DNA from: a virus
Lineage: Duplodnaviria > Caudoviricetes
Direction: 5' to 3' (one strand)
Virus record (IMG/VR): IMGVR_UViG_2974646641_000001
Coordinates: 9,788-73,787 of that record
DNA: 64,000 nucleotides
The notes beneath the pieces were generated by a model that was not told the DNA's origin, ran no database searches, and saw only the letters and a program-made list of their open reading frames with translations. Positions 1,935-52,033 of the stretch are shown here, one piece after another. Each line of letters opens with the position of its first letter. Within the stretch, counting starts at the first letter, position 1. A program made the translations under genes and the position numbers.

Positions 1935-1992
1935 ATTAGCTAAGGTTACTCCTAGTGTGAGTAATGTAACAATTGAAACTGAATAATCACCT

Positions 1993-2020
1993 ACATACCC
2001 CGTCTGGGGTGTGTGTACAT
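1993..2020 (+). promoter_or_regulatory. intergenic hairpin flanked by two TACAT sites
   Basis: catacccc-gtct-ggggtgtg stem-loop; TACAT at 1992-1996 and 2016-2020. Confidence 0.6.
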
Positions 2021-2061
2021 ATCCAAAAATAAAATATTAGATGAAAGACGAGGAGATTCAC

Positions 2062-8380: not shown

Positions 8381-8415
8381 ATATTTGGGGGCCACACCCC
8401 CAAATATACATACAT
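8381..8415 (+). promoter_or_regulatory. intergenic hairpin + TACATACAT
   Basis: perfect 11-bp stem atatttggggg/cccccaaatat, loop ccaca; TACAT at 8407 and 8411. Confidence 0.7.
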
Positions 8416-8437: not shown

Positions 8438-10222
8438 ATGGCGTTAAAGAATGATGAATTCAGTATCGGTGGATTGAACAGCCGCTCCGACTTACATGTT
8501 ATTATGGGTATGGTGTTGCCACCGATTGCCCCAACAATGTCAGAGTTATCGACAGATATTCCCGCTAAATACGGTAACTATTTTGGCGGAATTGATTATA
8601 CATCAAAAACAATTAACATTCCAATTACGATAATGGCTCCACATAACTCACAATCATATATAGACTACGCGCAAACCTTGGCCGGGTTGTTATTAACAGA
8701 CAATCCAGACAACAACCAAGAATTACCATTGGTATTTGGTTTTCAACCAGATTTAACATATTGGGGGCACATCACTTCAATATCTGACCCGCAAGTGACA
8801 CAGGAAGGGTCTTGGGATTCGACATCAACTATCACATTCGTAATGTCTGACCCTAGAGCAACTATGCCACAGGTAGAAATGCCATTGAAAAACGGGTTAA
8901 ATGTTATAACCGTTGATGGAACTGCACAAACAGAACCAGTTATCCAAATTATTCCAAAAAGAGCGTTAAAATATGTTGGATATACTCTCAATGGCGGTAA
9001 CTATGGCGTCGGCCCAGAAGACCCAATTGACCAAGATAATGCCGTTCAAGAGTGGCAAAGTGTTATTGATGACCCCATTAACTCGATGGCTTTATGGAGT
9101 AATGGAGATGACGCATTATCACCAATAAAAACTGGGACTGCGCATGTTTTTCAAGGTAGTGCTACTATTAATGAAGACTCTGGCTCAATGATTGTTAAAA
9201 AAGTCAATGGCAAAAAGGATTATGGAACAATGCCATCTAGTTTGGCAGAAAATGATAATAAGTGGCTCGGCCCCGGCTATAAGTATAATGGTATGACTCA
9301 GTCTCTTTCGGAGTGGAGAATTAAAGCAGGAATTCATCATACTAAATGGCAAGGGGCACATCGTGGAAGGGCAATTGGTCAAATTCAACTATTATGGTTA
9401 AGCCCAAACGGAGAAACAATTGGCCATTTTGGAATTTCTGACCATGCTTATGGTGCTCGCCCAGAATGTTTTTTGCAGATTACACAGCCCGGTGGGAATT
9501 TTGACGTTGGAGATGGGACTCACAGGACTTTCTACTATGGTTATGGCCCCTCTGGGGCATTTAGCAATGATTCAGACCAATCAATTAAAATAAAAACAGG
9601 TACAAAAACAATCTCTAAGACAGTTTCCTCCCGTGCTAAGAACGGCAAAGTAACTAAGAAGACAATTAACGAAAAGGTAGATACCTACGTAACGGTTCAA
9701 AACAGGAGAGAGTACAGTGCGTTGTCCGACGCGTGGTTATTTTTAGATTTATCATATTATGATAATGAATATCACTATTCAATTACTCAACATAATTTAG
9801 CAAACGGTCAACCATATACAAATCCTAACAAGTATTTCATCGTCAGTTCTCAACAACCAGTAAAGACAGGCACGGCTTACGATACAGCATTAGGAGGTTT
9901 TGCGATATTCTTCGGAAAAAGACCAATCACGGAAGATGTTCAAAAAATAGACTATGATGAACCGTATATGTCGTTAACCCATTTGCAAGTATTTAAACAC
10001 AATAAGGTTGATAGTAAGGATACACCAACATATATTGCGAATGCAGGATCTGAAATTATTATGGATTCAGAAGCTCAAAGAACAACGGTTGATGGGAAAA
10101 TAGAATATCCTGTTTGGTCAACAAGTTATCCAAAACTAAAGCCGGGTGTTAACTCTCTTAATATTGTTGGAGATTTAGATGACGCAAAAATGGTTCTGAA
10201 ATATTTACCAAAAAAGCTTTAG
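8438..10222 (+). CDS. distal tail protein (Dit) with large internal insertion
   Basis: N-terminal FSIGGLNS...YFGGIDY; C-terminal YPKLKPGVNSL...YLPKKL; 594 aa. Confidence 0.8.
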   Translation: MALKNDEFSIGGLNSRSDLHVIMGMVLPPIAPTMSELSTDIPAKYGNYFGGIDYTSKTINIPITIMAPHNSQSYIDYAQTLAGLLLTDNPDNNQELPLVFGFQPDLTYWGHITSISDPQVTQEGSWDSTSTITFVMSDPRATMPQVEMPLKNGLNVITVDGTAQTEPVIQIIPKRALKYVGYTLNGGNYGVGPEDPIDQDNAVQEWQSVIDDPINSMALWSNGDDALSPIKTGTAHVFQGSATINEDSGSMIVKKVNGKKDYGTMPSSLAENDNKWLGPGYKYNGMTQSLSEWRIKAGIHHTKWQGAHRGRAIGQIQLLWLSPNGETIGHFGISDHAYGARPECFLQITQPGGNFDVGDGTHRTFYYGYGPSGAFSNDSDQSIKIKTGTKTISKTVSSRAKNGKVTKKTINEKVDTYVTVQNRREYSALSDAWLFLDLSYYDNEYHYSITQHNLANGQPYTNPNKYFIVSSQQPVKTGTAYDTALGGFAIFFGKRPITEDVQKIDYDEPYMSLTHLQVFKHNKVDSKDTPTYIANAGSEIIMDSEAQRTTVDGKIEYPVWSTSYPKLKPGVNSLNIVGDLDDAKMVLKYLPKKL

Positions 10223-10227
10223 ACGGA

Positions 10228-10256
10228 ACGATAGAGAACTCCTCTATCGTACATAC
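10228..10256 (+). promoter_or_regulatory. intergenic hairpin + TACATAC
   Basis: perfect 9-bp stem acgatagag/ctctatcgt, loop aactc; TACAT at 10250. Confidence 0.7.
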
Positions 10257-20306: not shown

Positions 20307-20332
20307 TCCTCACAGTTATGTGAGGGTACATA
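20307..20332 (+). promoter_or_regulatory. intergenic hairpin + TACATA
   Basis: tcctcaca-gtta-tgtgaggg stem-loop; TACAT at 20327. Confidence 0.65.
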
Positions 20333-20361: not shown

Positions 20362-21333
20362 ATGGAACTATTTAATCAAGAAGTCTGGGACACAAAAGTC
20401 AAAGATGAAGATAAAGAAGCCTTAGAAGATTACTTATTAGAGCTTGAAGCCAACGGTCGGGCCGTTAAGACTCGTTATCAGTATAAGGCAGATATTCGTG
20501 GATTCTTATGCTATTCAAATAAGAAATATCCAAACAAAACTGTCACACAATTAAAGCGTAAAGATTTTCGTAATTTCTTCTTATTAATGCAACGTGATGG
20601 AACCAGCCATGCACGTATTAATCGTTTTCAAAGTAGTATTAGAAATTTTCTGGAATATCTGACAATCAGTGAAGACTACGATTACGAAGTAAACCAAATG
20701 CACGCCATTAAGGGTCTTATCAAAGAACCTGTTAAAACACACACTTATTTAACAGATGGCGAAGTTAACATGTTGCTAGATTATTTAATTCGCCATAAGA
20801 AATACGAAAAGGCTTTATTTGTTAGCCTTGCTTATGAATCATGCGGTCGGCGGAATGAAATTCTACAAGTTAAAAAGGATAAATTCGTGGAATCAAATCA
20901 AACAAACACCGTTATTGGTAAGCGTGCAAAACGCTTTAAATTAATCTATTTCAAGCGTACTCAACAAATCGCTGACCTTTATTTAAAGCAACGGGGCGAT
21001 GATGACATTGATAGTTTATGGATTTCAGACTACGGTGACGAACGCCACGCAATTAACTACTCCGTGTTCTATGAATGGTGCAACCAATTCGGTCGTATTT
21101 TAACAAAACTCACTGGTCATGAGGTTGCTGTTCACCCTCACGATTTCAGACGTACTGGTCTTGAAAACTACTCTACTGGTGTTCATCACGTATTAAAGGA
21201 AGCAGACAAGGACGCATTACCTTTGGAAGTGCTGAAACTGGTTGCTCATCATTCAAGTTCTGAAACTACGCAAGGTTATCTACAAGACCATGATGATGAC
21301 AAATTGAGTGACGCATTCGGAATTGAAATTTAA
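20362..21333 (+). CDS. tyrosine recombinase (Xer/integrase family)
   Basis: SAM-like N-domain; GRRNEI, GKRAK, HPHDFRRT, HSSSETTQGY catalytic boxes. Confidence 0.9.
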   Translation: MELFNQEVWDTKVKDEDKEALEDYLLELEANGRAVKTRYQYKADIRGFLCYSNKKYPNKTVTQLKRKDFRNFFLLMQRDGTSHARINRFQSSIRNFLEYLTISEDYDYEVNQMHAIKGLIKEPVKTHTYLTDGEVNMLLDYLIRHKKYEKALFVSLAYESCGRRNEILQVKKDKFVESNQTNTVIGKRAKRFKLIYFKRTQQIADLYLKQRGDDDIDSLWISDYGDERHAINYSVFYEWCNQFGRILTKLTGHEVAVHPHDFRRTGLENYSTGVHHVLKEADKDALPLEVLKLVAHHSSSETTQGYLQDHDDDKLSDAFGIEI

Positions 21334-28474: not shown

Positions 28475-28503
28475 AAAAAAGAGGTGCATTACACACCTCT
28501 TTT
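28475..28503. terminator. intrinsic terminator
   Basis: gaggtg/cacctc stem flanked by A and T runs. Confidence 0.75.
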
Positions 28504-29320: not shown

Positions 29321-30142
29321 TTACAAAGTACGTTTTATCAATTTTGCGGCCTTGCTTGCCACACTGTCACCGAATTTTTCTCTGGTAAGACTTACTGCGT
29401 TTGAGTCTGCTTTAGTAAACCAATAACCACCGAAATTGGCGCATTCACCTCTAATAACCATGCTAATTCCTCCTCGGCCAACCCTTAACTGACGAGCGGC
29501 CTCACGTTGAGATTTAAAGCATAGTGGCTCTTTGTTTTCTAGGTTGATTGCAATTACAAAACATTTTAAAATGCTAGACTTAATTTCTTGTAACTTCTCT
29601 TTAGTAATCTCATTTTTGGATTCCGTAAAATAGTAACCACCTGCCTGTTGATATTCACCTTTTAAAACTTTATTAATGTTTCCCTGTCCGACTAACGTCT
29701 GTCGTTCGGCTTCACGCTGTGAGTGAAAATATTGCTTTTTAAATGTCTTCAAATCGTATGCTGTTAAAGGGCGCCCCTTTGCCTCACCGTGCCTCTCCGT
29801 ATACTGGCGATTATAAGAAGCAGTGCACCATTCAAGGTTATCAACACGATTATCGGTTCTAATGCAATTTTTATGGTTAACTTGCGGTAGGCTATCAGAA
29901 TTCGGAATGAAAGTTTCTGCCACCAATCGGTGAACTTTTTTCGATTGCCATTTACCATTGTAAAAAACGTTCGCCGTTAAATAACTATGACTATTGTCAT
30001 ATTGTGGTCTAATCCCACCTTTAATATATCGTTCACCATTCTCATCGCAAATCACCATATCCAGCATATTAATTCTTCCACGAGAACTCGCTTCTACGCC
30101 GAGTACACTGGGAACTGGTTTCCAAATTTCCGTTTCATTCAT
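29321..30142 (-). CDS. NUMOD4-HNH homing endonuclease with two NUMOD1 repeats
   Basis: EIWKPVP; KVHRLVAETF..VNHKNCIRTDNRVDNLEW; two F.SQREA.R...GG repeats. Confidence 0.9.
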   Translation of the reverse strand: MNETEIWKPVPSVLGVEASSRGRINMLDMVICDENGERYIKGGIRPQYDNSHSYLTANVFYNGKWQSKKVHRLVAETFIPNSDSLPQVNHKNCIRTDNRVDNLEWCTASYNRQYTERHGEAKGRPLTAYDLKTFKKQYFHSQREAERQTLVGQGNINKVLKGEYQQAGGYYFTESKNEITKEKLQEIKSSILKCFVIAINLENKEPLCFKSQREAARQLRVGRGGISMVIRGECANFGGYWFTKADSNAVSLTREKFGDSVASKAAKLIKRTL

Positions 30143-30218: not shown

Positions 30219-30752
30219 TTATTGTTTACAAAACATGTTTCTTGTAATCTTCACTAATTCTTGCTTGTTATTTAATTCAATAGCTAGTGCCATCTCAACC
30301 TTTTCAATCTCGTCTTCTTGTGCCAAATAATAATCTGTGCGTTTTGTAATGTTATGAATCTGTTGAAGATTATTTAACGCCTTGGTGATTTCGTTAATTT
30401 TCTTATTTTGTTTGCGAAGTAATCTATCGAATGTTTCAGTCAAACCGCCAATAATCTCATTAATCACATCTTTATTCACTATTTCGCTATTGGAACGTTT
30501 CGCAAGCCAAACACAATCATGTAAACTATATACGGTGATGAGATTTCTATTATGAACGTCAACTACGACACGAATTTCATCAACGTCTAAGAACCAAATA
30601 CCGTCTTGATTCGTCTTGCTGAAAGTGCCGTGAGAAACAATATTAAGCAACCAAGGTTGCATAAGCGATTTGGAAATTCCAAATCTCTGACGTGCTCTTT
30701 TCTTAAAATGCTCACTTCTTGAATAAGCCAAGATTTCGTTCCGATTAATCAT
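30219..30752 (-). CDS. hypothetical protein with DUF4258/BECR-like N-terminus + coiled coil
   Basis: SEHFKKRARQRFGI...RVVVD...NLITVY pattern; start overlaps upstream stop. Confidence 0.5.
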   Translation of the reverse strand: MINRNEILAYSRSEHFKKRARQRFGISKSLMQPWLLNIVSHGTFSKTNQDGIWFLDVDEIRVVVDVHNRNLITVYSLHDCVWLAKRSNSEIVNKDVINEIIGGLTETFDRLLRKQNKKINEITKALNNLQQIHNITKRTDYYLAQEDEIEKVEMALAIELNNKQELVKITRNMFCKQ

Positions 30753-31074
30753 TATAATTCTCCTTTTTTGTCAGTGCTACTTGAAGTTTAATGAAAATAT
30801 CACGTGCTTGTTCGCTATCATATCTTCCAATGAACGACACATTGTCTGTATCTTTCATTTTCTGCATAATTCTAATCATCTTTTGATTATTTGAGATGAT
30901 GAAGATTTTCTCATCACTCTTATCTGCAAAGCTCATAATATAATTAAGGACATCTTTTTCAGTGTTACTCTTATCGAATCTCCTAAAATAGAAGTTCACC
31001 CAGTAATCACTTGCACAGGCATATGCAACTCTAACACCATCACTCGCTTTATAATAAGTAAGATAGACTTTCAT
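30745..31074 (-). CDS. hypothetical protein, possibly degenerate RNase H fold
   Basis: ATGA-coupled to mazF; three strands, a helix, then KIFIISNNQKMIRIM. Confidence 0.5.
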   Translation of the reverse strand: MKVYLTYYKASDGVRVAYACASDYWVNFYFRRFDKSNTEKDVLNYIMSFADKSDEKIFIISNNQKMIRIMQKMKDTDNVSFIGRYDSEQARDIFIKLQVALTKKENYND

Positions 31075-31433
31075 AGCGATAATGCCACCACCAAACACTT
31101 ATTGACTTCTTTCATAATATCATCGTCCAAACTACCAATCTTGAAATAAAGTTGGTCTACGTTAATTGTACGAACCTGCTCACATAGTGCAGTGTTTGAA
31201 ACAACTTCACCGTGATTTGGCAATCCAAATTCGATATGAGTTGGTAAATGGTGTTTGTTACGAGTAGTTAGTGGTACAATCGTAATTGCTGGTGAGTATT
31301 TGTTTGCCAAGTTATTTGATACAACCAACACTGGTCTTTTTCCACGTTGCACTGCGTCACGTGAACTTTGCCGTTCACCCAAATCTGCATAGTATACATT
31401 TCCTCGTTCAATTCTCTCATTATTTACTAACAT
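31071..31433 (-). CDS. mazF: MazF/PemK (EndoA-like) endoribonuclease, no adjacent antitoxin
   Basis: RGNVYYADL, RPVLVVSN, PLTT, LPTH, EQVRTI motifs; AAGGAGG RBS. Confidence 0.93.
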   Translation of the reverse strand: MLVNNERIERGNVYYADLGERQSSRDAVQRGKRPVLVVSNNLANKYSPAITIVPLTTRNKHHLPTHIEFGLPNHGEVVSNTALCEQVRTINVDQLYFKIGSLDDDIMKEVNKCLVVALSL

Positions 31434-31466
31434 CGTAATAATTCCTCCTTGATATTTTGTAATTAC

Positions 31467-31495
31467 ATTATACGTCCAGAAACAACTTTTGTCAA
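31467..31495 (-). promoter_or_regulatory. consensus sigma70/sigmaA promoter of mazF operon
   Basis: TTGACA-17-TATAAT on minus strand. Confidence 0.85.
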
Positions 31496-31677
31496 GCTAA
31501 AAAATACATTTTTTTGATTTGCGTGTTTGGTCTTTTCAAATCTTTCAATCGTTTTATAGTTGTTCTTCTAAAGTTTCCTTCATATAAATATCCTTCTTTC
31601 TTTTTTCTATGTAAAAAGCATACCATTTCTGATATGCTTTGTCAAGTATTATTATTAGTGTTACTATTGATGATTAT

Positions 31678-32292
31678 CTACTTTAGCAATGTATTGGTCG
31701 TATAAATAGTATAATCACAACGATAAATAAATAATCGCTTGCCATCAATCAAAAGTGACGTGCTACTAGGAACCTGTGTTGACTTATAACTAACTGTATC
31801 ACCAGCGAAAGTAGCAATTGGCTGTCCGGCTTGTGAGCGAATAAGAACAACCTTACTAGAACCTGTAAAATAGTTCTGATACTTGTTTACAAAGCGGTTC
31901 ATAAATGGAACTGAACTATTATTGTTAGTGACATTATATCGCTTTGGATATTTATCAAGTACGTTAGTCAATCCATCTTGGTAGGCGATTAAACTACTGC
32001 CTACGTGAGTGATTTGTTTTCCGCCTAATGTAATATTAAGCACAGATGAAGCCTTAGATGTTTCGCCATTTTCATTTACTTGGTCAAACTCTTTATCTCG
32101 TGCAATCGACAATGATTTCCCGTGTATAGTGTCAATTTTTTGTGCATTGTAGTCATATGTTTGTACCGTCATAGGTAATCCATATGTTTGTTGCTCAAAG
32201 TCTGAAAACCAGCTATCTACAAATTGACAGCCCCCTAAAACAACCGTAAGCGATAGCGTAAGCGCTACAAGCAATAGTTTCTTTTTATTCAT
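31678..32292 (-). CDS. lipoprotein (DUF5052-like)
   Basis: lipobox LGGC after hydrophobic leader; GLPMTVQTYD motif. Confidence 0.7.
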   Translation of the reverse strand: MNKKKLLLVALTLSLTVVLGGCQFVDSWFSDFEQQTYGLPMTVQTYDYNAQKIDTIHGKSLSIARDKEFDQVNENGETSKASSVLNITLGGKQITHVGSSLIAYQDGLTNVLDKYPKRYNVTNNNSSVPFMNRFVNKYQNYFTGSSKVVLIRSQAGQPIATFAGDTVSYKSTQVPSSTSLLIDGKRLFIYRCDYTIYTTNTLLK

Positions 32293-33126: not shown

Positions 33127-33480
33127 TTAATAATCTAACCCGTAAATTGGCCCCTTGATAGAATATTCGGTTGACAGCATATCGGCAATACGTTTGAAAT
33201 CACCTGCCGTAATACCATTGCCAATCAGCTTATGAATCTTATCAATAATTTCATACGCGGTGCGGTTATCGCTGTTAGCCAATTCATTATATTCACGATA
33301 TAAGTCATCATAGTCTTGGCCAAGAAGTTCGTAAGCCACGCTCAATGCTTGATTGTCTTTTTCGATATCTTCAACTTCGCCTTGTAGTTCCTCGTTTTGT
33401 TCTTCGAGAATCTTATTATCTATCACGGCGTCTTCCAATTTTTTCTGTAATTCTACAATTCGTTCTTTATCAGTCATCAT
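33127..33480 (-). CDS. acidic coiled-coil protein, paralogue A
   Basis: C-terminal IGNGI...FK.IADMLS..YSIK.PI.GLDY shared with the adjacent ORF. Confidence 0.7.
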   Translation of the reverse strand: MMTDKERIVELQKKLEDAVIDNKILEEQNEELQGEVEDIEKDNQALSVAYELLGQDYDDLYREYNELANSDNRTAYEIIDKIHKLIGNGITAGDFKRIADMLSTEYSIKGPIYGLDY

Positions 33481-33549
33481 AAAACACTTCCCTTTCTTTT
33501 CAAACATTATTCTTATTGCGAATACATTTTAACACGATTAACGTCTGTA

Positions 33550-33891
33550 TTATTCGCCATAATCCAAACCAAATATTGGCTCCTTAATAGAATACTTAAT
33601 TGATAACATATCTGCAATCTTCTTAAATTCTGCGGAAGAAATACCATTACCAATCATAGAATGAATATCATTGATAATTTCAGGTACATTAGAGTTTTCA
33701 AGCCTTTTTCTTAATTCACCATTTTCCTTATATAAATCATCATAGTCTTGTTCAAGGGAATCATATTCTCGTGATAATTCTTGGTTGTCAAACTCGCTAT
33801 TATCAAGTTCAGTGCCAAGCGAATCATTTTCAGCTTCGAGGTCTTCAACCTGTTGTTCTAGTTCTCTAATATATTCTTCTTCATTGTCCAT
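33550..33891 (-). CDS. acidic coiled-coil protein, paralogue B
   Basis: same C-terminal motif as paralogue A. Confidence 0.7.
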   Translation of the reverse strand: MDNEEEYIRELEQQVEDLEAENDSLGTELDNSEFDNQELSREYDSLEQDYDDLYKENGELRKRLENSNVPEIINDIHSMIGNGISSAEFKKIADMLSIKYSIKEPIFGLDYGE

Positions 33892-33983
33892 TACAATCAC
33901 TTTCCTTTCCTTTTTAAATCCTTATTACATCTGTAATTATATCATGATTTGTGCTTATAGTCAAGCCCATAATTAAATTATTT

Positions 33984-34499
33984 TTATTTCTTGTTGCACT
34001 CGCAAAAGTGATACCCACCATGTGTATTTCTTCTACCTCTCAAACAAGCACTTATTTTTGAGGCGCTAAGTCCAAGTCTTCTTGCACAATCATTAACCCC
34101 AGAATATTTCATTTTTCTATTATCTTTGATTGCATATATTTCTCTTTGTGGGAATGTCTTGTTTTTCTCTTGTTCTAGCCTGCTCGCCCACCTAAGATTG
34201 GACGCCCTGTTATTATCTTTATTTCTATCAATATGGTCAACAGTTTCCTTATTGTCTGGGTTATCAATAAAAGCCAGAGCTACTTGTCTATGAACAGATA
34301 CATTTTTTGGCACGCCATTTTTATATAGCGTCACCATATGATACCTTCCAGTTGTGTCTTGTGAGAGTATTTTAGACTTGACGGTTCTGGTTCCGTTTCC
34401 TCTTGTTTTAACTTTTCTAGTAATTGACCTAACCCTACCAAGGCTAGATACTTCATAATTAGGATAACCCAATATTGGCTTCCAAACTTCTTTTTCCAT
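33984..34499 (-). CDS. NUMOD4-HNH-NUMOD1 homing endonuclease
   Basis: EVWKPI.GYPNYEVSSLGRVRS; SVHRQVA...VDHIDRNKDNN..NLRW. Confidence 0.9.
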   Translation of the reverse strand: MEKEVWKPILGYPNYEVSSLGRVRSITRKVKTRGNGTRTVKSKILSQDTTGRYHMVTLYKNGVPKNVSVHRQVALAFIDNPDNKETVDHIDRNKDNNRASNLRWASRLEQEKNKTFPQREIYAIKDNRKMKYSGVNDCARRLGLSASKISACLRGRRNTHGGYHFCECNKK

Positions 34500-51932: not shown

Positions 51933-52033
51933 TCGCTAAAAATAACGAATAAAATGGTAATTTTACCAAGAAAACAGTTGACAAAAGCGTGCCAGTTTGG
52001 TACGCTGTACATACAATAAAGGAGGAATGTGAT

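Follow-up and report, generated by a model that had tools for sequence, protein, structure and literature searches.

A phage mazF gene without a recognisable antitoxin and the placement of UACAUA in Lactiplantibacillus plantarum phages

A virus of the Caudoviricetes, known from IMG/VR record IMGVR_UViG_2974646641_000001 (73.8 kb; CheckV completeness estimate 93%), carries an intact gene of the PemK/MazF endoribonuclease family, which we call mazF. We analysed a 64,000-nucleotide (nt) stretch of this record (positions 9,788 to 73,787), hereafter the window, whose numbering we use throughout. MazF is the textbook toxin that requires an antitoxin. No recognisable type II antitoxin is encoded upstream of this gene or anywhere in the record, and the hexamer at which the best-studied relatives of the enzyme cut, UACAUA, is missing from the phage's open reading frames (ORFs) and enriched between them, commonly just behind a hairpin. 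We propose that mazF encodes an antitoxin-free RNase, produced early in infection, that would make programmed cuts at these intergenic cassettes, leave the site-free ORFs immune and damage host messages. We put the probability of this reading somewhat below one half, at about 0.45. DNA around the locus is ~90% identical to that of the L. plantarum phages Maenad and Satyr (Tybeckvirinae, genus Maenadvirus), relatives from which a lytic lifestyle may be presumed for this phage as well.

UACAUA in the ORFs and spacers of phage genomes

The MazF of Bacillus subtilis cuts the strict hexamer U/ACAUA (PMC11780869), and the enzymes of Listeria monocytogenes and Staphylococcus aureus are likewise strict for it (bioRxiv 10.64898/2026.08.06.743204). 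Counting the message strand of our phage, we find 12 copies of the corresponding DNA word, TACATA, in same-strand spacers and one in a called ORF. This lone ‘coding’ copy is part of the promoter-like element at 51980..52013 and actually lies in a promoter/leader region, which leaves no true ORF with UACAUA, where synonymous-codon shuffles predict 9.2 ± 2.7 copies. The spacer copies, by comparison, are three times as many as the 4.0 ± 2.1 expected from dinucleotide shuffles, and TACATA ranks fourth among 3013 hexamers for spacer enrichment (p 5e-11), preceded only by poly-A, AGGAGG and poly-T. The antisense word, TATGTA, shows neither spacer enrichment nor any similar bias. The signal is visible only when the full hexamer is counted and ORFs are split from spacers; over the whole sense strand the pentamer UACAU is not avoided, with 60 copies observed and 66 expected under a Markov model.

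The same layout is found in five relatives from three genera, Satyr, Maenad, 8014-B2, SA-C12 and Lenus, which have 13-17 spacer sites each (3.5-5.3 expected) and 1-7 coding sites (10-16 expected). In the phages in which mazF is followed by the two genes that we call X and Y, 47-69% of the spacer sites are hairpin-linked: a stem of five or more base pairs, of which three or more are G-C, ends 0-4 nt ahead of them. As background, 4% of spacer positions follow a stem in this way. Among sets of sites that precede orthologous genes, eight, each represented in 4-6 genomes, have an invariant TACATA and stems that vary with compensatory substitutions. A ribosome-binding site (RBS) follows within 0-25 nt of TACATA in most of these sets. 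Four cassettes from the late operon are listed in Table 1. We considered the possibility that the hairpin-TACATA units of this operon are promoters and rejected it: the RBS begins just 0-20 nt behind TACATA and the upstream position is taken by a variable GC stem, which excludes that role for the late-operon sites. The arrangement fits a cleavage site that would leave hairpin-capped fragments upstream and RBS-bearing fragments downstream.

These observations can be assembled into a mechanism. MazF would be made early, from host-type consensus promoters and without a MazE-type antitoxin, which would be dispensable because UACAUA has been purged from every phage ORF. About 15 spacers retain a copy, always on the message strand, and the usual position is 0-4 nt behind a GC-rich hairpin with the RBS of the next gene close by; at these points MazF would cut long phage transcripts between genes. 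Upstream RNA pieces would keep a protective 3’ hairpin, and downstream pieces would keep an intact RBS. MazF would also degrade host messages that bear UACAUA. From the genomic layout we infer the cutting itself, its effect on expression, and the identity of the cutter as the phage enzyme rather than one of the host. An earlier note on this DNA had suggested a host-shutoff or processing nuclease, and the genome-wide placement of UACAUA supports that suggestion indirectly but strongly. A broader formulation is more tentative: a family of virulent phages of the Lactobacillaceae may have domesticated MazF as an antitoxin-free processor of dedicated hairpin-UACAUA cassettes spread over the genome, which would divide polycistronic messages into units capped by hairpins, with immunity achieved by ORF purging and with X, perhaps also Y, acting as a hairpin-reading or timing cofactor and not as a classical antitoxin. 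The two proteins may equally be brakes on MazF or neighbours with no related function.

The mazF gene, its promoters and its neighbours

The 120-amino-acid (aa) product of mazF matches Pfam PemK_toxin (PF02452) over residues 9-116 (E 3.1e-22; 79.3 bits, cut-off 23.1) and PHROG 1936, ‘MazF-like growth inhibitor’ (E 1e-38); the orthologues in Satyr, Lenus, 8014-B2 and SA-C12 carry the same label in RefSeq. It aligns over its full length with the solved structures of S. aureus MazF and B. subtilis EndoA at ~40% identity (E ~5e-19). All four EndoA-like motifs that had been read from the sequence earlier are present, namely R33-P34, P54-L-T-T57, L63-P-T-H66 and E85-Q-V-R-T89. Residues R33 and T56 align with Arg25 and Thr48, the catalytic residues of EndoA (Simanshu 2013, as cited in PMC8634880), and are invariant across six phage homologues that include those of Satyr, 8014-B2, Lenus, SA-C12 and the myovirus Bacchae. 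The ratio of nonsynonymous to synonymous substitution rates (dN/dS) against four relatives is 0.09-0.13, and values near 0.1 indicate that the gene is kept by purifying selection. We predict that mazF encodes an active MazF-type endoribonuclease.

The Tybeckvirinae proteins form a separate MazF clade, with at least 60% identity inside it and at most 49% to anything outside. Their closest cellular relatives are from Clostridia and Bacillota, with identities that do not exceed 46-49%; none of the best 80 genomic relatives is from a Lactobacillaceae genome, and no close copy was found on Lactiplantibacillus plasmids. On these grounds we rejected a recent capture of mazF from the host.

Profiles for MazE/AbrB (PF04014) and RHH (PF01402) find no match at E<=1 in the entire 73.8-kb record. 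The 244-nt spacer upstream of mazF contains just a 44-aa ORF that overlaps both promoters described below and a 9-codon remnant ORF that is probably non-functional, whereas the majority of mazF genes among the 80 nearest bacterial relatives are abutted upstream by an ORF of 50-117 aa. In the related phages the upstream neighbour varies by genus, being a small ORF of no known kind in some and a DNA methyltransferase gene in others. We rejected the small upstream ORFs as MazE-like antitoxins: they have no Pfam match, save for coiled-coil noise in a 62-aa ORF of Bacchae. An upstream RNA antitoxin of type III-like design was rejected as well, as positions 31000-31750 have no tandem or direct repeats except one 10-nt chance pair. 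An Rfam search returned a sub-threshold match to Atu_C9 (24 bits; gathering score 40) and a chance snoRNA match, and nothing else. For antisense RNA running into the 3’ end of mazF, the plus strand offers no more than a weak promoter-like site (9/12) at 30842-30870, and we set this idea aside too. The earlier description of mazF as an orphan is thus borne out with respect to MazE and RHH proteins, upstream and across the record, but it has to be corrected for gene X, which is coupled to mazF downstream by an ATGA overlap.

The sigma-A consensus promoter that had been claimed for mazF, here P1, is exact, with its -10 element ending 33 nt before the ATG, and it is identical in Satyr and Maenad. 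Five exact TTGACA-17-TATAAT sites occur in the window, compared with 0.08 expected from shuffles; they are therefore real promoters, and that of mazF is one of several. In all three genera examined, mazF stands behind its own early-type promoter. About 150 nt upstream of P1 lies a second, composite element, P2, whose self-complementary arms are at 31640..31630 and 31625..31615, and elements of this type stand directly 5’ of mazF in 8014-B2, Lenus and SA-C12. The two copies in the window define a class of promoters, TTGACA-17-TA(T/C)GCT, whose spacer and -10 region pair to form a hairpin that TACATA follows. In DNA of this class a promoter coincides with what read-through RNA would carry as a hairpin-UACAUA cassette. 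Transcripts initiated at P2 would start within TACATA, so that the complete site would be present only on read-through RNA arriving from upstream. No terminator was found between the upstream DUF5052 gene and mazF. P2 and the missing terminator are corrections to the picture given in the earlier note.

The order mazF-X-Y-transglycosylase is common to three genera of Tybeckvirinae. The overlap between mazF and X is 4 nt in Satyr, Lenus and SA-C12 and 10 nt in 8014-B2. The X family is restricted to these phages and is present only alongside this mazF clade: a profile search of 1.84 billion representatives gave three matches at E<=0.001, full-length only for its own cluster; of the other two, one covers part of the C terminus and the second is weak and lies in a protein of 1336 aa. 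An AlphaFold (AF2) model of X, with a predicted local distance difference test score of 78, has a beta3-alpha-beta-alpha-beta-alpha core of RNase H-like type. Its top structural matches are all RNase H-like, comprising Argonaute PIWI (Z 9.3), integrase cores (Z 8.0-8.2) and RNase HI (Z 7.6-7.7), and Foldseek gives probabilities of 0.99-1.0 with E-values that are all above 0.001 (from 1.2e-3). The fold is predicted to be a degenerate one. No lineage has the full acidic DEDD catalytic set: acidic residues are missing from strand 1, where K9 is conserved; strand 4 reads SNN in proteins of the Maenad type and SD in those of the Lenus type; and the Asp of the last helix is found in the Maenad type only. 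The RNase_H (PF00075) and RVT_3 (PF13456) profiles do not match X at E<=10.

The second downstream protein, Y, is modelled as an N-terminal domain, in which three helices precede a sheet of four strands and H15, R19, R23 and H78 are conserved, and a coiled-coil hairpin of 90 residues that dominated the list from the VIA fold search. The topology of the N-terminal domain is the one described for RegB and RelE, a tentative assignment with a weak Foldseek match to RelE (3bpq_B, probability 0.87); the DUF4258 profile has no match in Y at E<=10.

Table 1. Features of the mazF region and of UACAUA-bearing elements in the window
Feature	Position	Strand	Description
P1	31467..31495	-	exact sigma-A consensus promoter, TTGACA (31495..31490)-17-TATAAT (31472..31467)
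Shine-Dalgarno of mazF	31444..31449	-	AGGAGG, 10 nt before ATG
P2	31608..31645	-	composite: TTGACA-17-TATGCT (31645..31617), self-complementary spacer, then TACATA (31613..31608)
Second P2-type element	51980..52013	+	TTGACA-17-TACGCT, self-complementary spacer, then TACATA; in a leader, though called ‘coding’ by the ORF caller
Remnant ORF	31554..31583	-	9 codons behind a strong, P2-linked RBS; probably not functional
mazF	31071..31433	-	intact PemK/MazF endoribonuclease gene, 120 aa; from Pfam, PHROG, PDB alignment and dN/dS
Gene X	30745..31074	-	109 aa, ATGA-coupled to mazF (overlap 31074..31071); predicted RNase H-like fold
Gene Y	30219..30752	-	177 aa, 8-nt overlap with X; alpha3-beta4 N-terminal domain and long coiled-coil hairpin (model)
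Intrinsic terminator	28477..28503	-	closes the mazF-X-Y-HNH-transglycosylase transcription unit
Late-operon cassette	1992..2021	+	TACATA, stem ccccgtctgggg, TACATA; 19 nt before the next start codon
Late-operon cassette	8382..8412	+	25-nt hairpin, TACATA immediately after, then RBS
Late-operon cassette	10229..10255	+	21-nt hairpin, TACATA immediately after, then RBS
Late-operon cassette	20308..20332	+	19-nt hairpin, TACATA immediately after

The surroundings of the operon differ in part from those in the relatives. Between the DUF5052 lipoprotein gene and mazF (31434-31677), ~0.7 kb with 2-3 small genes of Maenad and Satyr is absent, and the strong RBS with its 9-codon ORF is what is left there. 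The window has two ORFs of homing-endonuclease type with HNH_3 and NUMOD domains (I-HmuI-like), at 29321-30142 and 33984-34499, both on the minus strand. The first of these sits between Y and the LysM-SLT transglycosylase gene and seems to have been inserted into the mazF operon as a mobile element, because Satyr, Lenus and 8014-B2 have no gene at that place. Two adjoining minus-strand genes farther upstream (33127-33507 and 33550-33900) encode acidic coiled-coil proteins that are paralogues, with a near-identical C-terminal tail (…GNGI..(A/G)(D/E)FK.IADMLS..YSIK.PI.GLDY). Elsewhere, a 325-aa ORF after the holin gene (~20746-21288, plus strand) has a borderline Phage_integrase (tyrosine recombinase) domain, at 27.4 bits with a cut-off of 27.1, which is a caveat on the label ‘strictly lytic’. 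Avoidance of restriction sites is extreme in the window: GATC occurs once in 64 kb (10047-10050), compared with 177 copies expected, and GGATG/CATCC, GCATC, GCAGC/GCTGC, CCWGG, GGWCC and CTGAAG have 0-2 copies each.

The source of UACAUA cleavage and the role of X

Two further phages serve as controls. LP65 (NC_006565.1) is an L. plantarum myovirus without MazF, and Bacchae (NC_047924.1), a Harbinvirus, has a MazF that is 36% identical to ours; both are without X and Y. In the ORFs of both, no hexamer shows a stronger strand-specific depletion than UACAUA: LP65 has 2 coding copies where 30 are expected, and Bacchae has 7 where 37 are expected. Such strong avoidance in a MazF-less phage makes the depletion in ORFs a general property of L. 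plantarum phages, and it suggests that they are exposed to an RNase specific for UACAUA, belonging either to the host or to the phage community. In spacers neither control is enriched, LP65 having 7 sites (10.6 expected; 1/7 hairpin-linked) and Bacchae 18 (15 expected; 3/18 hairpin-linked). Among the genomes tested, the excess of hairpin-linked spacer sites is therefore specific to the mazF-X-Y phages.

Several of our observations weigh against the proposed mechanism. The counts in LP65 mean that an RNase of the host, or one circulating among phages, could be the source of the avoidance in ORFs and could also cut the cassettes, and Bacchae has a MazF yet no enrichment of cassettes. The six Tybeckvirinae genomes represent one phylogenetic event, so that the link between operon and cassettes amounts to a single co-occurrence. 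The phage enzyme, moreover, is just ~40% identical to the EndoA-type enzymes, and its beta1-beta2 loop, SSRDAVQRGKRP, is 3 residues longer than that of EndoA. In the B. subtilis enzyme, Gly18 and Glu20 of this loop (GSEQGGVRP) touch the RNA (PMC8634880). In the HMMER alignment the phage loop has no equivalents of the two residues and so falls outside a UACAUA-specific subfamily defined by them; with a longer loop of this kind, the specificity of the phage protein is not readable from its sequence. Finally, X, with its tight coupling to mazF, may act as an inhibitor.

An RNase that is encoded by the host, or is otherwise common, might both shape and use the layout, leaving the phage MazF with another specificity or job, such as shut-off of host mRNA at a different motif or exclusion of competing phages. 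The avoidance in LP65, which is as strong as in the MazF-bearing phages, favours this explanation, as do the divergent specificity loop and the endogenous MazEF of L. plantarum WCFS1 (PMC10221531). We nevertheless consider it unlikely. Hairpin-UACAUA cassettes reach 3-4 times expectation only in phages with this mazF operon; EndoA-type MazF is reported to be absent from the genus Lactobacillus (bioRxiv 10.64898/2026.08.06.743204), and the MazF of L. plantarum has been grouped with E. coli-type proteins (PMC3519753). We also find no alternative strand-specific depleted motif at which the phage MazF might act, the other strongly depleted words being restriction-site-like, Shine-Dalgarno-like or homopolymeric. 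A decoy function, in which the phage MazF would titrate host MazE or form mixed dimers with host MazF and so blunt or trigger a MazEF defence, had been raised in the earlier note and appears very improbable. Phages are known to manipulate host MazEF: AimX and YosL of phi3T bind MazF, and SroA/SroB compete for MazE (PMC10769878). A pure decoy, however, has no need for invariant catalytic residues under purifying selection, the phage clade is remote from any cellular MazF found and its nearest cellular relatives are not Lactobacillaceae, which, with the reported absence of EndoA-type enzymes from Lactobacillus, speaks against partnership with a host system. Nor does this idea offer any reason for the UACAUA layout.

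Alternatively, mazF and X, possibly with Y, may form a toxin-antitoxin-like module of reversed gene order, in which X, produced in step with MazF through translational coupling, would bind and restrain MazF or release it at a set time. Such a module could provide timed shut-off, superinfection exclusion or abortive-type control, and it might coexist with a role in processing. HigBA and MqsRA are type II toxin-antitoxin systems of reversed order, and in them, as in mazF-X, the toxin comes first and a translationally linked partner follows. An overlap of X with mazF is conserved across the relatives, X occurs with this mazF clade only, and a fold that is catalytically degenerate suggests a role in binding. 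In addition, X diverges faster than MazF, as antitoxins usually do (31% and 61% identity, respectively, between the window and Lenus). We regard an inhibitory X as doubtful all the same. It is a compact, basic alpha/beta domain (isoelectric point 8.9) with neither a helix-turn-helix or other DNA-binding domain nor a disordered acidic tail, and is therefore unlike MazE, PemI and other type II antitoxins; it is also unrelated to HigA and MqsA in sequence and fold. The Harbinvirus MazF does without X and Y, and ORFs free of UACAUA leave little need for self-protection.

Comparison with known systems and implications

The nearest known counterparts of the phage enzyme are EndoA (also NdoA or MazF-Bs) and the MazF proteins of S. 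aureus and L. monocytogenes, which are type II toxin RNases. They belong to the same Pfam family and have in common with it the catalytic Arg and Thr and the LPTH and EQxRT motifs, and their cut site is exactly the hexamer around which the phage genome is organised. Apart from the loop, the differences lie in context. EndoA is encoded behind MazE/EndoAI in an alr-mazEF-rsb neighbourhood, whereas the phage gene lies outside any such neighbourhood, in a virulent-type phage, behind early promoters and coupled to a downstream gene for an RNase H-like protein. Other phages with PHROG 1936 genes, among them the Harbinvirus Bacchae, gut Clostridia phages and staphylococcal prophages, also have MazF homologues, but in the genomes tested only the Tybeckvirinae clade combines mazF-X-Y with enriched hairpin-UACAUA cassettes.

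The closest functional parallel may be RegB of phage T4, a sequence-specific RNase of early infection that has a toxin-type fold and no known antitoxin and cuts at a short motif found mainly in intergenic or ribosome-binding regions of phage messages (PMC3014915). Our gene likewise has an early-type promoter and no recognisable antitoxin, and its putative short motif is concentrated between genes. The two enzymes differ in fold and site, RegB being RelE/YoeB-like with the motif GGAG and the phage protein MazF/Kid-like with the putative site UACAUA. They would also differ in outcome: RegB depends on ribosomal protein S1 and renders early mRNAs inactive, whereas the sites described here follow hairpins, are mostly in the late operon and would spare the RBS.

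The MazF family and its occurrence in phages are already known. We found no paper that links a phage MazF with programmed UACAUA cassettes; the literature that we found on UACAUA and phages consists of two B. subtilis studies and a survey of S. aureus toxin-antitoxin systems. This virus appears to keep a MazF without an antitoxin, in a genome organised as a whole around a six-letter site. If that is true, a phage would for a second time, and independently of T4 RegB, have made an RNase with a toxin fold into a tool of gene expression, with immunity to the toxin achieved through site avoidance instead of an antitoxin, and the system could be tested directly in a host that is tractable and important in food and as a probiotic. 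Judging from the MazF-less control, an RNase specific for UACAUA appears to exert selection on L. plantarum phages in general. Such a pressure is relevant to the debate over what MazEF does in phage defence and to designing starter strains that resist phages.

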